IMG/VR virus record: IMGVR_UViG_2695420403_000013
Coordinates: 1 to 26,336 of that record
Source: a virus
Taxonomy: Duplodnaviria; Heunggongvirae; Uroviricota; Caudoviricetes
Direction: 5' to 3' (one strand)
Length of the DNA stretch: 26,336 bases
Below the pieces are notes generated by a model. It ran no database searches. It saw nothing but the letters and a program-made list of their open reading frames with translations, and had not been told where the DNA came from. A program made the position numbers and the translations under genes. Of the stretch, positions 1 through 16,543 are shown in pieces (position 1 is the first letter of the stretch; every line of letters starts with the position of its first letter).

Positions 1-744
1 CAGAAGGATAAGTTCGGCGCGGGTAAGAACGGTTTTACCCGTGGTAACCCCCAGACCGGCACGCCTGCCACCGATCTGGATGATGACTACTTTGACATGT
101 TGCAGGAGGAACTTTGCAGCGTGGTGGAGGCATCCGGTGCCAGCCTGGAGAAGGGGCGGCACGACCAGTTACTTACCGCACTTCGCGCGCTGCTGTTAAG
201 CCGCAAGAATCCGTTTGGCGATATCAAATCGGATGGCACTGTGCAAACGGCTCTCGAAAACCTTGGTTTGGGAGAAGGCTCTGCATTACCTGTTGGTGTC
301 CCTGTTCCGTGGCCTTCAGCCACTCCGCCAACAGGCTGGCTGAAATGCAACGGAGCAGCTTTTTCTGCTGAAGAATACCCGGAACTGGCAAAGGCTTACC
401 CGACAAATAAATTGCCAGATTTACGTGGTGAGTTTATTCGTGGCTGGGATGACGGGCGTGGTATTGATGCTGGACGTGCTTTATTGAGCCTTCAGGCTGG
501 GATGCTGGAAAAACACCGCCATATTGTTGTTGCCAATGATGGTTACGACACAAAAGATGAATGGGAACTGGCTACGATTTTCAAAAAAACATACACACAA
601 GGACGGGGACTTGATGCCACAAATACAGGAGGGAGTCTGATCCCATCACCGACACTTCATTCACGAGGGAGTATCGGTAATACTGGCGGGAGTGAGACCC
701 GTCCACGAAATATTGCATTTAACTTTATCGTAAGGGCTGCATAA
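1..744 (+). CDS. Tail fibre C-terminal region with phage tail-collar-type receptor-binding domain; 5' end outside window
   Basis: Frame 1 is open from nt 1 to the TAA at 742-744. Collar-domain-like motifs [29 protein letters not shown] and [16 protein letters not shown]. Stop overlaps the next ATG (TAATG). Confidence 0.6.
251..276. repeat. Candidate DNA-invertase crossover site (hix/gix-like 26-mer), left copy
   Basis: ctctcgaaaaccTTggtttgggagaa. Core AAAACC-TT-GGTTT resembles the Hin/Gin site consensus as I recall it. 22/26 identical to the reverse complement of 2117..2142. Central TT lies at codon positions 2-3 of the Leu in the encoded ENLGLGE. Confidence 0.5.
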
Positions 745-1352
745 TGGATAACGCAGTATTAAATAGCGAGTTTATTGCCACGAAGGCGGGGAATATTACC
801 GTCTATAACTACGATGGTGAAACTCGGGAATATATTTCTGCATCAACTGAATATCTTGCAGTGGGTGTCGGTATTCCAGCATATTCCTGTTTAGACGCTC
901 CTGGTACATATAAGGCTGGTTATACAATTTGCCGTTCTGTAGATTTAAATTCATGGGAATATGTGCCAGACCATCGCGGTGAAATCGTCTATAACACCGA
1001 AACGGGAGATGCCAAAGAAATCACAGCACCGGGTGATCACCCCGAAAATACAACCACTATCGCCCCATTAACGCCATACGATAAATGGGATGGTGAGAAA
1101 TGGGTGACCGATACTGAGGCACAGCATAGCGCCGCAGTAGACGCGGCAGAAGCACAGCGTCAGTCACTGATTGATACTGCAATGGCTTCCATTAGTCTGA
1201 TTCAGCTGAAATTACAGGCCGGACGGAATCTGACGCAGTCAGAAACCAGCCGACTTAACACGGTGTTGGATTACATTGACGCGGTGACGGCAACAGATAC
1301 CAGCACCGCGCCGGATGTTATCTGGCCTGAACTGCCGGAGACTGCGCAATAA
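744..1352 (+). CDS. Tail fibre assembly protein (Tfa-like chaperone)
   Basis: 202 aa, directly follows the tail-fibre C-terminus with overlapping stop/start. C-terminal ...TSTAPDVIWPELPE is typical of Tfa proteins. Confidence 0.75.
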   Translation: MDNAVLNSEFIATKAGNITVYNYDGETREYISASTEYLAVGVGIPAYSCLDAPGTYKAGYTICRSVDLNSWEYVPDHRGEIVYNTETGDAKEITAPGDHPENTTTIAPLTPYDKWDGEKWVTDTEAQHSAAVDAAEAQRQSLIDTAMASISLIQLKLQAGRNLTQSETSRLNTVLDYIDAVTATDTSTAPDVIWPELPETAQ

Positions 1353-1521
1353 ACTCACCATCAATATATAAATCCCCCTGCTGTGTGTCAGCAGGGCATT
1401 CTTTCCATATTAATGATGGATGGAATCTTCCTTCAGGATTAATTTCCGTTATCTCTTCTACTTTATTTTCTTCAATTCTTGCCCACATATGAACCTCACC
1501 AGTAAATATAAACTGCGCCAT
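1318..1521 (-). CDS. Small ORF (67 aa) downstream of H; possible remnant or small accessory protein, function unknown
   Basis: ATG at 1519-1521 preceded by GGAG, overlaps the 3' end of H. The region is AT-rich and the ORF runs through the 1376-1396 hairpin, so the 3' part may not be coding. Confidence 0.25.
   Translation of the reverse strand: MAQFIFTGEVHMWARIEENKVEEITEINPEGRFHPSLIWKECPADTQQGDLYIDGEFIAQSPAVQAR
1376..1396. terminator. Stem-loop between the convergent tail-fibre modules, possible bidirectional terminator
   Basis: CCCTGCTG-tgtgt-CAGCAGGG, perfect 8-bp stem, 24 nt after the tfa stop, followed by cattctttcc. Confidence 0.4.
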
Positions 1522-3178
1522 CTGCTCCGGCACCCGACTGACCCGTTGATGAATTAGGACATAATCCAGCTCCGCCACCTCCAGGCCCAACTGCTGATAC
1601 CGCTTTTCCGTTAGCTGTATCTCTGAATGAACCTGCTCCTCCGGGGCCACCACCAGAACCACCATTACCAGCTCCCGATGCGGCAGAAGCAATGGAACCT
1701 GGAGAACCTGGCCCAAGCGATATATTAATTGTTCCCCCGACACCAACTGCGCCTAACCCTCCGGAAGGCTGGCCTCCGCTATAGCCTCCGGAAGCTGACA
1801 TGTAAGTCCCGAAACTGCTCGAGCCACCATTTTTACCGTTTACAGAAATACCAGACACAGGCGCACCACCGGTACCAACCGTAATCGAAACACTGTTTAT
1901 ACCAGTTAAATCTACCAGCCCCTCAGCAACTCCGCCCCCACCACCTCCTCCGCCACATGTAACGGCTGAAGCGGTTGTTGAACCTATCCCTCCTGACGCA
2001 CCGCCACCAATAACTTTGACGTAACATTTTCTTCCTTTGCGCAACTCTTCAGGAACAGTCCAGCTTGTTACTCCAGCCGTTGTGAAGGCAACCAGATTTC
2101 TGAACCCAAATGAACCTTCTCTCAAACCAAGGTATGCGAGAAGACCAGCTACATCCTTTCCACTCAAATTAGTCAGCGTATTGTCCAGCGGTTGTTTACC
2201 TGCTAGCGCATTAAGCATTGTCGTGGCAAAGTTCGGGTCATTCCCCAGCGCCGCCGCCAGTTCGTTCAGTGTATCCAGTGCCGCAGGTGCAGAACCCACC
2301 ATTGCTGCAATCGCTGATTTCACAAAAGCTGTAGTGGCAATCTGTGTATTGTTGACCGACTGTGCCGCAGTAGGTGCTGTTGGCGTTCCGGTGAGTGCCG
2401 GACTCGACAGCGGTGCTTTTAGTGCCAGCGCATTGTTAATGGTGGTACTGAATTTCGGGTCATTGTTAATGGCTTCGGCAATTTCTTTCAGTGTGTCCAG
2501 CGTGGCTGGCGCACCGTTAATCAGAGCAGTAATAGCGGCCTGAACAAACTCAGTGGTCGCAATCCGCGTGGTGTTATTTCCTGCTGCAGGCGTCGGCGCT
2601 TTTGGTTCTCCGGTAAATGTCGGATTATGTTTCTGCGCATACTGGGTATGAGGATCTTGTGCGGCAATGTGGTTTCTCATCTGGTCATCCACATACAGCT
2701 TTAATTCCAGGACTTCATCATCCACGTATTTACGGGTTGCCAGCACTACAGCAGGGTCGATTTTCAGGGTGATATTGTCCGTACTGCTGGTAATCAGCAC
2801 CATGCGCACGGTCTGGGTGCGCCCGCTGCCTTCAGCCAGTTGCGGCTTATAGCTTTCCGGGCAGTTGCCCACGGCAATCAATGCCCCGGACTCATCAAAC
2901 AGGCCCACTTCACGTATCCACCAACCGCCCTCGTTTTCAGGGATCACCTGTTCAGCAATAATCTGGCTGCTGTTCTGCGGGTCGATGTACAGCATATTCA
3001 GCGCAGCCCGGCGTTTCTCATTTACTAATGCTGTCTGCTTTGCGTCCGGCGTTGGCAATGTTCCGCCGCCATCGCCTACCGCCATATGGGTAATTTTTAG
3101 CGGCACACCGAGCGCGGCGGCGCTGGCAAGTTTCGCCGCGCCAATATCCGTCAGCAGGGTATAAAATTTTGTGCTCAT
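1496..3178 (-). CDS. H: Tail fibre protein, P2 gpH-like N-terminal/shaft region with a glycine-rich C-terminal domain
   Basis: 560 aa. N-terminus MSTKFYTLLTDIGAAKLASAA...MAVGDGGG...GGWWIREVGLFD resembles P2 gpH as recalled. Internal repeats (ALINGAPATLDTL / AAMVGSAPAALDTL). C-terminal ~170 aa is very Gly/Ser-rich. ATG overlaps the upstream gene's stop. Confidence 0.85.
   Translation of the reverse strand: MSTKFYTLLTDIGAAKLASAAALGVPLKITHMAVGDGGGTLPTPDAKQTALVNEKRRAALNMLYIDPQNSSQIIAEQVIPENEGGWWIREVGLFDESGALIAVGNCPESYKPQLAEGSGRTQTVRMVLITSSTDNITLKIDPAVVLATRKYVDDEVLELKLYVDDQMRNHIAAQDPHTQYAQKHNPTFTGEPKAPTPAAGNNTTRIATTEFVQAAITALINGAPATLDTLKEIAEAINNDPKFSTTINNALALKAPLSSPALTGTPTAPTAAQSVNNTQIATTAFVKSAIAAMVGSAPAALDTLNELAAALGNDPNFATTMLNALAGKQPLDNTLTNLSGKDVAGLLAYLGLREGSFGFRNLVAFTTAGVTSWTVPEELRKGRKCYVKVIGGGASGGIGSTTASAVTCGGGGGGGGVAEGLVDLTGINSVSITVGTGGAPVSGISVNGKNGGSSSFGTYMSASGGYSGGQPSGGLGAVGVGGTINISLGPGSPGSIASAASGAGNGGSGGGPGGAGSFRDTANGKAVSAVGPGGGGAGLCPNSSTGQSGAGADGAVYIYW
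2117..2142. repeat. Candidate DNA-invertase crossover site, right copy, inside H
   Basis: ttctctcaaaccAAggtatgcgagaa. Its reverse complement ttctcgcataccTTggtttgagagaa matches 251..276 at 22/26. Centre lies at codon positions 2-3 of Leu350 of H (LLAYLGLRE). Confidence 0.5.
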
Positions 3179-5705: not shown

Positions 5706-6512
5706 ATGAGTGTTATGAATCCAATAAGTTCTAATATATTTAATGCTGAATTTTTAAACACCCCGGCAGCGGCACTTGCCGCATGGATTTCCATTATTGG
5801 AGCTGTTATAACTTTGGTGACGATAGTTATAAGAGCACTATTCAAATATAGAAAATCTCATGATGTAATTTTGAAAAAATCAGGAATACCTGCGTTTATA
5901 TTAAATTTTTTTCTTATACGAATATCATTAAAAAGGCTGCCTACTATCACATGGGCTGAAAAATCAATCACGGTTCTCTTTTCACTTCTTTTTTTGTGTG
6001 CAATTTATATTTTTGGTCCAGTTTTCATCCAAGCCATTAGAACCCCACCAAATAGCACATTGCTTTATTGGATAAAGTCCGGTGAATCATTTTATATGTC
6101 AAAAAAACTGGCGACTGCAGCTACAATATTAACCACTCCTGATTGGGAAATATCAAAGGATGATTGCGAAGAGTCATCCTCTGCCAGTACAGAGAAGTAC
6201 AAATCATTAACTATCGAACATAAAGAAATTCTTTGTAAACTACTAACCACTGATGAAGGGAATGCTTACATTGATGAAGAAGTCAAGAATTTCGTTAAAG
6301 ACAAATTCTTTATCTATTCCTTTGCCCCAACAACCATATTTATTCTATTATGGATTTCTTTGGGTTTTATACTGACCATTCACTATTCTAAAAAAGTTAG
6401 GAAATATATTCTGACTGAACAAAAAAATGCAATTCATTGGGCATATGGTGAATTCAAGACAGAAGGAATCTATTCAATATATCAAGAGTTAGAACGTAAG
6501 ACTCACCATTAA
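5706..6512 (+). CDS. Cargo gene: multi-pass inner-membrane protein of unknown function
   Basis: 268 aa, AT-rich, opposite strand to the flanking late operons. AGGTGG ribosome-binding site before the ATG. About 4 hydrophobic helices plus a ~90-aa acidic soluble loop. Confidence 0.6.
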   Translation: MSVMNPISSNIFNAEFLNTPAAALAAWISIIGAVITLVTIVIRALFKYRKSHDVILKKSGIPAFILNFFLIRISLKRLPTITWAEKSITVLFSLLFLCAIYIFGPVFIQAIRTPPNSTLLYWIKSGESFYMSKKLATAATILTTPDWEISKDDCEESSSASTEKYKSLTIEHKEILCKLLTTDEGNAYIDEEVKNFVKDKFFIYSFAPTTIFILLWISLGFILTIHYSKKVRKYILTEQKNAIHWAYGEFKTEGIYSIYQELERKTHH

Positions 6513-14860: not shown

Positions 14861-16543
14861 TTACAAATACCGTCTAACACGTATTTTATTAATCTTCGAC
14901 TCATTTCCAATTCTTATCAAAGCATTTCTCGCTTTTTCTCCGATGCGTTTCATTCTATCTGAACCATTGCTATACCCACCAAACTTAAGAGCAGTGGCTA
15001 TTATTGAATCACCACCTTCAAGAATGACTTTTTTAAATAAATCATAGTAGTCATCCTCTGAGGCAGCATCCAATATTTCCTCGTGCCTATCAGACCAACC
15101 ATTCTGACTTGATAATTTTATTAGAACATCCTTTATAGAACCATCCAGATTTAAAGTAATAGAATAATCTTGGATTTTTGACTTTAACTCAGCATCTTTT
15201 ATAGGATGAACATTCATGTAAATAGATTGGACATATTCCTTAAGAGCATCATTGCCGTAATTAATAAATTTACTTATTAATTCACTTGCTTTAATATTTT
15301 CATCTAAATCTCTATACAGTCCGACAACACTATCCAAGTCACTTGGAGTTACATACTCTATCCCACCAACCACCGCTTGATATAGATTATCAACGACCTG
15401 ATTTCGGTTATCTTCAAATGAATTATAGAAAAGCTTCCATGCTTCAAACAGTGAACCTCGCTTACTATCACGGATAAGTTCATCATTTCTTAGACTTACT
15501 TGCCTTTGAAAATTGTTCATATCAATATATCCATGCTTAACCATGTCTATAAGGACTTCATCAAGTTCGTTTGTTTTTTTATAACCATATATAAGCAAAG
15601 TATTAAGCCATTTTTTTCCTTTTCCATCCTCTTTTTCATCACGCACATAGATATTTCTCATATTTCTAATATACTCCAATGATGGTACATCTCCATCTGG
15701 AGTAAATGCGTAATGACTCCAACAATACAAAGTTAAGGAGCGTGCGACTTCATTTGCAATTTTATCAAAATTAATGTTAATAGCAGGTAACAAGGCTAGC
15801 AAAAACCGCTCTATTTTTTTCAGTATCCGAATATTTTTAATACCTAGAGAAATGGAGTATTTGCTTAATAATTTATGAACATCAGAATTATTTTTATATG
15901 CTATAGCTGCACATTCTTCTGGCGTAGGGTTATAGGTAATCTCTCTATCAATAACCTTTTCTTTATAAGTGGAGTAATCATCCATACCACTTGTCCCATT
16001 ATTAAGTAAAAGAACCACCTTACAATTTTTTTGTTCTTTCAATAAAGAAACCAACCCTAAGACATCTTTCACTTCTAAATTTTTACCACGTCTTTCTAAG
16101 TCATCTATGACTACAATAACATTAGTAATTGACATAAATGACATTGACTCAAGTGTCGTAGCGAAATTTTTCACAACAGGTGTTTCTTTTAACAAACGAG
16201 CGGTCTTTCTAGTGCAGGATTCAAGAAGTCCCTTTGTATTTTGGGTTGCTGTTTTTAAATTAGGTTTATTTCCAATAAAATCTTTTGTAATTGTATTTTC
16301 AAAGATGGAATATTTTAATGCGTCCAATGAATTAACACCAAAAAGAGAGACGTAACTATATCTATTAAATGCAATCTTATTCTTATTTTCCTTTAAGAAA
16401 GTATTCCAAGTATAGGTTTTCCCAATCCCCCATTCACCCTGAATAGCCATTACCTCAGGTTCTGCAGATGAAATAAAGTCTGACAACTGTTCTTTAATAT
16501 AGTCCAATGACATGCACATTCTCCGAGATAGATAGTCATCCAT
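14861..16543 (-). CDS. Cargo gene: KAP-family P-loop NTPase (PifA-like), candidate anti-phage/exclusion protein
   Basis: Walker A QGEWGIGKT (Trp-containing G-x-W-G-x-G-K-T typical of KAP NTPases) and Walker B VVIDDLERR. AT-rich. Probable true start is ATG 16511-16513 (GGAG ribosome-binding site), downstream of a TATAAT at 16544-16549. Confidence 0.6.
   Translation of the reverse strand: MDDYLSRRMCMSLDYIKEQLSDFISSAEPEVMAIQGEWGIGKTYTWNTFLKENKNKIAFNRYSYVSLFGVNSLDALKYSIFENTITKDFIGNKPNLKTATQNTKGLLESCTRKTARLLKETPVVKNFATTLESMSFMSITNVIVVIDDLERRGKNLEVKDVLGLVSLLKEQKNCKVVLLLNNGTSGMDDYSTYKEKVIDREITYNPTPEECAAIAYKNNSDVHKLLSKYSISLGIKNIRILKKIERFLLALLPAININFDKIANEVARSLTLYCWSHYAFTPDGDVPSLEYIRNMRNIYVRDEKEDGKGKKWLNTLLIYGYKKTNELDEVLIDMVKHGYIDMNNFQRQVSLRNDELIRDSKRGSLFEAWKLFYNSFEDNRNQVVDNLYQAVVGGIEYVTPSDLDSVVGLYRDLDENIKASELISKFINYGNDALKEYVQSIYMNVHPIKDAELKSKIQDYSITLNLDGSIKDVLIKLSSQNGWSDRHEEILDAASEDDYYDLFKKVILEGGDSIIATALKFGGYSNGSDRMKRIGEKARNALIRIGNESKINKIRVRRYL

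Follow-up and report, generated by a model that had tools for sequence, protein, structure and literature searches.

A conserved short gene beside the glycine-rich tail fibre tip of a P2-like prophage encodes a single-domain relative of the Pam3 chaperone gp25

The closest described counterpart of the locus considered here is the gp24-gp25 complex of cyanophage Pam3 (PDB entry 7YPX), in which the tip of the fibre gp24 combines a TNF-like and a glycine-rich (Gly-rich) domain and the next gene encodes the chaperone gp25 (PMC9608196). In gp25, a beta-sandwich made of residues 1-55 clamps each fibre subunit along the side of its TNF-like and Gly-rich domains, and residues 64-162 are a helical trimerisation domain; the protein is absent from Pam3 virions (PMC9608196). 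When expressed alone, gp24 is found mostly in inclusion bodies, with a soluble trimeric fraction that exists without gp25, and the fibre's own helical stalk is able to trimerise without gp25 (PMC9608196). In this study we describe the tail fibre gene H of a P2/186-like prophage and a small open reading frame (ORF) immediately downstream of it, in a window of 26,336 nucleotides (nt) comprising positions 1 to 26,336 of the IMG/VR virus record IMGVR_UViG_2695420403_000013. As in Pam3, H ends in a tip of the TNF-like and Gly-rich type and the next gene encodes a protein with a homologous beta-sandwich. In gp25, which has 162 amino acids (aa), four C-terminal helices make up a domain for trimerisation and for capping of the tip, whereas the protein in the window ends after the beta-sandwich, at 56 aa. 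The fibres also differ, as gp24 is a short helical-bundle fibre, whereas H is a long P2-type fibre with its tip in a putatively invertible cassette.

Two further systems resemble the locus in its gene order. The Tfa/Caudo_TAP proteins (lambda Tfa, P2 G, Mu U/TfaMu 5YVQ; PF02413, PF16778) are encoded directly after the fibre gene and are modular in the same way, with a variable N-domain for tip recognition; PF16778 or PF02413 forms the C-terminal domain in some long relatives of the small ORF. Unlike these proteins, the small ORF of the window has no PF02413 or PF16778 match and no helical C-terminal domain. The introduction of the Pam3 paper states that some Tfa proteins stay in virions (PMC9608196). 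The invertible segments of the Gin/Cin/Pin/Hin systems (Mu G, P1 C, e14 P) likewise hold two convergent cassettes of tip and helper between inverted crossover sites inside a fibre gene, and the relatives of our segment have the adjacent serine invertase and both orientations. The classical segments carry a full Tfa-type gene in both cassettes (U/U', tfaE/tfaP), whereas the window has a 56-aa module in one of them and, in this contig, no adjacent invertase.

The tip itself can be compared with the Gp38 adhesins of T2/S16-type phages (polyglycine sandwich, 6F45), to which gp24 has been likened (PMC9608196), and which are also receptor-binding tips of stacked Gly-rich motifs. Gp38 is a separate protein attached to gp37, whereas the Gly-rich domain of the window is fused to the fibre, and Gp38 was not among the Foldseek matches for the H tip. 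The tail-tip proteins of phage Bxb1 (9D93) and the glycine-rich (TG) ligand-binding domains of ALK/LTK belong to the same TNF-like and Gly-rich fold class, with Foldseek template modelling (TM) scores of about 0.55-0.58 for Bxb1 and weaker ones for ALK/LTK; the likeness to both is one of fold, and ALK/LTK act in another biological context.

A short conserved gene downstream of H

The small ORF opens with an ATG 7 nt past the H stop codon, behind a Shine-Dalgarno motif (Table 1), and judged from this sequence arrangement it would be translationally coupled to H. An earlier reading of the window, made from its sequence only, had noted a 67-aa frame running through a perfect hairpin and regarded it as probably a remnant or not coding. 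That frame exists (1521..1318) and contains the hairpin; it is also the call of the Prokaryotic Genome Annotation Pipeline (PGAP) in relatives (WP_071556292.1), but the true start is likely to be the ATG at 1488, giving a protein of 56 rather than 67 aa. PGAP itself places the start differently according to orientation, at 67 aa where the Gly-rich cassette is ON (WP_071556292.1; L001:4061-4264) and at 115 aa where it is OFF (WP_053265586.1; L002:5318-5665), both calls beginning upstream of the conserved ATG.

Pfam, PHROG and NCBIfam give no match for the small ORF, neither to PF02413 nor to PF16778, and a word-indexed protein search with it finds only six near-identical Escherichia coli entries. 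The sequence-only reading was right that no canonical full-length Tfa (PF02413 or PF16778) follows the Gly-rich H; it had proposed looking for a full Tfa at this position in related prophages, and the relatives carry the same small ORF there, under WP_071556292.1.

Our locus scans yielded 86 loci (numbered with the prefix L) and 70 distinct proteins bearing the module, 19 of them short (51-67 aa) and 51 long (81-191 aa). The short proteins, encoded by 20 distinct DNA sequences, are seen in Escherichia, Intestinirhabdus, Pseudocitrobacter, Budvicia, Trabulsiella, Edwardsiella, a Yersinia phage and a Pseudomonas phage. An ATG at MWARIE/MWAFVL opens 17 of these 20 sequences, most with a Shine-Dalgarno-like purine-rich motif directly upstream. 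Several have an in-frame stop codon two codons ahead of this ATG, and therefore the 67-aa start is not general. In 16 distinct short forms compared over their first 46 codons, the mean proportion of synonymous differences (pS) is 0.765 and that of nonsynonymous differences (pN) is 0.226, with pS greater than pN in 119 of 120 pairs; synonymous sites among the short forms are near saturation. The ratio of nonsynonymous to synonymous substitution rates (dN/dS) between the small ORF of the window and that of Yersinia phage vB_YpM_MLG42 is about 0.08. These data show that the short form is a real and conserved gene under purifying selection; homologues carry it as a complete gene, and the view of the 67-aa frame as a remnant or as noncoding falls.

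Two phages carry both the small ORF and the Gly-rich tip; tblastn searches made separately with the tip and with the small ORF arrive at the same pair, MLG42 and Pseudomonas phage Amjad_SA. MLG42 (PP599993) has a silent Gly-rich cassette followed by a small ORF homologue, MWARIENNVVMELTDIDPTDRFHPSLIWVECPADTQQGYTYINGEFTPPQETTAS (74% identity), with the same TGGTGAGG...ATG junction as the window. The tail-gene cluster of Amjad_SA contains a PF21722 fibre gene and, 1,275 nt from it, a gene for a homologue of 59 aa with 51% identity across the full 56 residues. The space between the two in Amjad_SA is occupied by a 419-aa polysaccharide deacetylase domain protein (L006:3233-4492). In MLG42 the Gly-rich cassette and the unannotated small ORF lie between the sheath gene and G/H (L005:2850-3668), with no annotated invertase gene and only a degenerate crossover-like site, and this cassette looks like a fossilised invertible segment.

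The hairpin inside the small ORF is compatible with coding. The stretch that forms it encodes CPADTQQG, and its outer stem follows from conserved Cys-Pro and Gly codons; among 18 sequences its covariation is not significant (61.7% of cells paired, against 58.3 +/- 2.4 in shuffled data). The hairpin is terminator-like on both strands, and from its position past the Tfa stop codon we infer that it is possibly the terminator of that convergent gene. Similar GCCC...GGGC hairpins are found in other short forms as well.

Similarity to gp24-gp25 and linkage to Gly-rich tips

An exhaustive phmmer search of 1.84 billion representatives with the 56-aa query gave 272 matches with E <=0.001, nearly all of them to proteins between about 50 and 215 aa long, aligned at residues 1-50. 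The domains that follow the module in 118 longer members include PF16778 Phage_tail_APC (17), DUF4376 (15) and Caudo_TAP (3). Seven large repeat proteins among the matches (P0007, P0035, P0059, P0081, P0111, P0115 and P0133, with Flg_new, DUF5122 and fn3 repeats) were judged not to be homologues; their scores add up from several short stretches that resemble the GW.YDG.F hairpin at the level of a motif.

A profile of the module has one credible match in the PDB, residues 6-64 of 7YPX chain a, which is gp25, the 'tail fiber chaperone' (E 4.8e-6). The AlphaFold2 model of the 56-aa protein, with a predicted local distance difference test (pLDDT) score of 85.8, has five strands and a predicted disordered segment at residues 48-56, and its sole Foldseek match in the PDB is again 7ypx_a (TM 0.69, root mean square deviation 2.3 Å over 50 columns). 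The module and the 202-aa Tfa of the window showed no similarity when their profiles were compared. Profile and model together indicate that the small ORF product is homologous to the N-terminal, fibre-binding beta-sandwich of Pam3 gp25. It lacks the C-terminal helical trimerisation domain, as the ORF stops at residue 56, and no continuation is possible because the convergent Tfa gene overlaps its 3' end.

The fibre that precedes the small ORF gives a parallel result. H is an intact fibre gene with a P2-type N-terminal part (PF12571 at residues 1-150), after which come the shaft and a tip that is variable. The tip scores 38 bits with Pfam PF21722 Gly_rich_2 over residues 366-560, above the family cut-off of 24.3. 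Residues 347-560 contain 29.4% Gly and 58.9% Gly, Ser, Ala and Thr combined, compared with 6.4% and 37.3% in residues 1-346; eight consecutive Gly at residue 409 and the string GGSGGGPGGAG are both present. The minus-strand DNA directly 3' of H (1400-1500) has a GC content of 34.7%, against 49.3% for the whole window. The description of H in the sequence-only reading, as ending in a Gly-rich domain with the strings it quoted and then in AT-rich DNA, is borne out on each of these points.

The profile of the H tip matches residues 98-283 of 7YPX chain A, the Pam3 fibre gp24 (E 3.3e-6), so both window profiles match the two chains of one PDB entry. The AlphaFold2 model of the tip (pLDDT 90.9) has 7ypx_A as its best Foldseek match (E 1.2e-7, TM 0.63/0.57), ranked before the Bxb1 tail tip proteins and then the ALK/LTK Gly-rich domains. 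With the tip as a single sequence, phmmer found no match among PDB sequences, and the relation to gp24 needed the profile. A scan of genome contigs with the Gly-rich alignment was swamped by the Rossmann-like GxGxxG pattern and gave no usable result. The C-terminal position of the tip in H is consistent with a distal receptor-binding role. The Gly-rich cassette is present at >=90% identity in 57 of 5,426 complete E. coli genomes, and because of this recurrence it is not a sequencing or assembly artefact, a possibility that the sequence-only reading had left standing.

The module is strictly linked to Gly-rich tips in the sampled loci. Sixty-five of the 70 distinct module proteins start no more than 30 nt from the stop codon of an ORF ending in a Gly-rich domain, as recognised by a hidden Markov model built from the tip alignment; four start 105-1775 nt downstream of such an ORF, the Amjad_SA protein among them, and one has no upstream sequence. 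Considering the distinct short proteins separately, 16 of 19 start within the same 30 nt of the fibre stop codon.

The invertible segment and its draft contig

The Gly-rich tip and the small ORF form the minus-strand cassette of a segment whose plus-strand cassette consists of a Collar tip and a Tfa gene (Table 1). The inverted repeat at its ends carries the AAACCAAGGT core of Gin/Cin/Pin/Hin-type crossover sites, and e14 P-segment sites with the same core are quoted in PMC12529663. On its sequence features, window 258-2141 reads as an invertible host-range segment of the Gin/Cin/Pin type, in which two cassettes converge. The intact 202-aa Tfa (PF02413) that the sequence-only reading placed in the alternative cassette is there. 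Its 3' end and that of the small ORF overlap at 1318-1352, and a convergent overlap of 29-38 nt with the Tfa gene recurs in several enterobacterial genera (L005, L031, L055, L058, L092, L093, L096). This recurrence suggests an old shared cassette junction, possibly a truncation event that created the short form.

Table 1. Features of the fibre locus in window coordinates.
Feature	Position	Strand	Description	Basis
Constant part of e14-like (Mu-type baseplate) side tail fibre gene	1..251	+	Does not stem from the P2-like prophage; contig end at position 1
Left crossover site	252..281	.	TCTCGAAAACCTTGGTTTGGGAGAAGGCTC	Inverted repeat, flank alignment
Alternative fibre tip	282..743	+	Collar domain PF07484; in frame with the upstream constant part in this contig
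Tfa of the alternative cassette	744..1352	+	202 aa, PF02413, intact; convergent 35-nt overlap with the small ORF
Small ORF	1318..1488	-	MWARIEENKVEEITEINPEGRFHPSLIWKECPADTQQGDLYIDGEFIAQSPAVQAR; 56 aa and stop codon; predicted stand-alone beta-sandwich module, homologous to the gp25 N-terminal domain
Perfect hairpin	1376..1396	.	8-bp stem and 5-nt loop; inside small ORF codons 31-38 and 24 nt beyond the stop of Tfa
Shine-Dalgarno motif GGTGAGG	1494..1500	-	Overlaps the last codon and stop codon of H; 5 nt before the ATG at 1488
Tail fibre gene H	1496..3178	-	560 aa and stop codon, intact ORF	ORF call, Pfam, PHROG tail-fibre families
Variable tip of H	1499..2111	-	About residues 357-560; TNF-like and glycine-rich domain, Pam3 gp24 type, PF21722
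Right crossover site, inside H	2112..2141	.	Minus-strand reading TCTCGCATACCTTGGTTTGAGAGAAGGTTC	Inverted repeat (I1), flank alignment

Relatives with an identical Tfa show the segment in both orientations, always adjoining a Resolvase-family gene. Among the P2-like relatives the Gly-rich cassette is ON in L109 and the Collar cassette in L106, L108 and L112; among the e14-like relatives the Gly-rich cassette is ON in L107, L110 and L114 and the Collar cassette in L111. A search for the H::Collar junction lacks specificity for this segment, and the case for inversion does not draw on it.

In the window there is no invertase gene next to the segment, while one is present in all complete relatives examined, and both ends of the segment abut fibre genes, so that both cassettes are in frame with a fibre gene and neither flank holds an invertase. 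The sequence comes from a draft contig (CYDW01000014.1, assembly GCA_001283865.2) that ends at window position 1. The first 257 nt come from an e14-like element, and from 2142 on the sequence is that of a P2/186-like prophage. Window 1-2130 is 100% identical to the e14-like element of NZ_CP145657, where the e14-type fibre gene reads into the Collar cassette. The arrangement of e14 fibre, segment and P2 H is absent from the complete E. coli genomes searched, and the H::Gly-rich junction itself is seen in complete genomes. We consider a chimera assembled through the repeated segment the more likely origin of the contig, ahead of real recombination between prophages. The sequence-only reading had called the Gly-rich H variant the currently expressed one. 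The tip is indeed joined to the constant part of H, but the contig behind the claim is a draft, and its left end does not belong to the P2-like prophage.

Two genes elsewhere in the window stand apart from the fibre locus. Between the tail genes S and V, on the opposite strand, window 5706-6512 (+) holds a DUF6216 gene for a predicted membrane protein, which looks moron-like and is also found in the relative NZ_AP021895. A 560-aa KAP-family P-loop nucleoside triphosphatase (NTPase) is encoded at 14861-16543 (-), adjoining the portal/terminase region; the cargo at this position varies in relatives, where AAA ATPase, PIN and SIR2 genes are found.

Role of the small protein and its alternatives

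We propose that the 56-aa gene probably encodes the cognate partner of the Gly-rich tip, in effect a chaperone of which only the fibre-binding domain is left. By analogy with Pam3, one copy of the protein would bind each nascent Gly-rich tip, hold the Gly-rich loops and keep the tip soluble and in register, while the long H shaft would provide trimerisation in place of the helical domain; afterwards the small protein would either depart from the fibre or remain on it. Tip binding, chaperone activity and the dispensability of the helical domain are all what we infer from this analogy. The wider form of the proposal is, in our estimate, an even bet: that a free-standing beta-sandwich of 56 residues suffices as a tip-specific helper, that the helical domain is dispensable where there is a long trimeric shaft, and that an unannotated family marks Gly-rich tips across Proteobacteria and cyanophages.

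Several points weigh against this proposal. Binding and chaperone activity are carried over from Pam3, whose chaperone has two domains, and it is the helical domain that forms the trimer and caps the tip there (PMC9608196); a protein lacking it may act in another way or less efficiently. For the 56-residue model the Foldseek E-value is only 0.12, though this match is the sole one, and the profile match of the H tip to gp24 carries strong compositional bias. The loci behind the linkage were gathered with peptide patterns from close relatives, so that the sample is biased and the rate may be inflated. The converse linkage fails: genes for other proteins, some resembling divergent chaperones, stand behind the more distant Gly-rich fibres. 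Finally, the short form may be the product of a truncation that accompanied the juxtaposition of a convergent Tfa cassette, although selection has maintained it since.

The alternative that fares best, though we think it unlikely, is that the small ORF encodes a real tip-associated protein which is not a folding chaperone, for example an accessory that stays on the mature fibre, like Mu Tfa, or one that shields the tip. The strict linkage to Gly-rich tips would be equally expected of such a protein, which has no trimerising and capping domain of the kind through which gp25 is thought to act, and the retention of some Tfa proteins in virions gives it a precedent (PMC9608196). Its only structural homologue, however, is a domain of a chaperone that is absent from Pam3 virions, and the long forms of the module carry chaperone-type C-terminal domains.

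We regard as improbable a Gly-rich tip that folds without any phage helper, or that uses a Tfa in trans from the other cassette or from another prophage, with the small ORF dispensable. Some Pam3 gp24 forms soluble trimers even in the absence of gp25 (PMC9608196), and E. coli genomes often contain several Tfa genes. Against this, the near-universal adjacency of the module to Gly-rich tips and its apparent translational coupling argue for a dedicated role, and the window's Tfa, besides having no profile similarity to the module, is encoded on the strand opposite to H transcription.

It is very improbable that the prophage is locked in a non-functional orientation. The contig has fibre genes at both ends of the segment and no invertase beside it; however, both crossover sites are intact, the absent invertase is explained by the contig end and the hybrid junction, and the segment with the identical Tfa occurs in either orientation beside a Resolvase-family gene in P2-like and e14-like relatives. 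The Gly-rich orientation also has a complete fibre gene and a partner gene. The sequence-only reading had offered a choice between a chaperone-independent fibre and a locked, defective one; with a downstream gene that is homologous to the fibre-binding domain of gp25, neither horn is needed, and the locked orientation lacks support.

Least probable of all, and already contradicted, is a decaying Tfa remnant or noncoding frame beside a Gly-rich fibre with no dedicated helper: the missing family matches, the internal perfect hairpin, the overlap with the convergent Tfa and a length of about one third that of the long relatives, without their C-terminal domain, would all fit decay, but 19 distinct proteins of several genera keep the frame at a length of 51-67 aa, 17 of 20 DNA sequences keep its ATG, pN stays at about 0.2 while synonymous sites are nearly saturated, and the 56-aa protein is predicted to fold confidently.

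Taken together, the locus is, as its sequence reads, an ordinary invertible host-range segment, and what is new in it is a conserved and unannotated mini-partner of the Gly-rich cassette. The tip and the small ORF vary the pairing seen in Pam3 gp24 and gp25 and do not constitute a defective or helper-less fibre, which corrects the earlier reading of this prophage form as defective. Annotation pipelines at present leave the small ORF nameless and disagree on its start (67 or 115 aa). Phages and tailocins are retargeted by exchanging tail-fibre tips and helpers, and a Gly-rich tip transferred without its 56-aa partner may misfold; the strict pairing of the module with PF21722 tips offers a simple rule for finding cognate helpers. 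The single-domain form also provides a minimal system for asking which part of a Tfa-type chaperone is needed.

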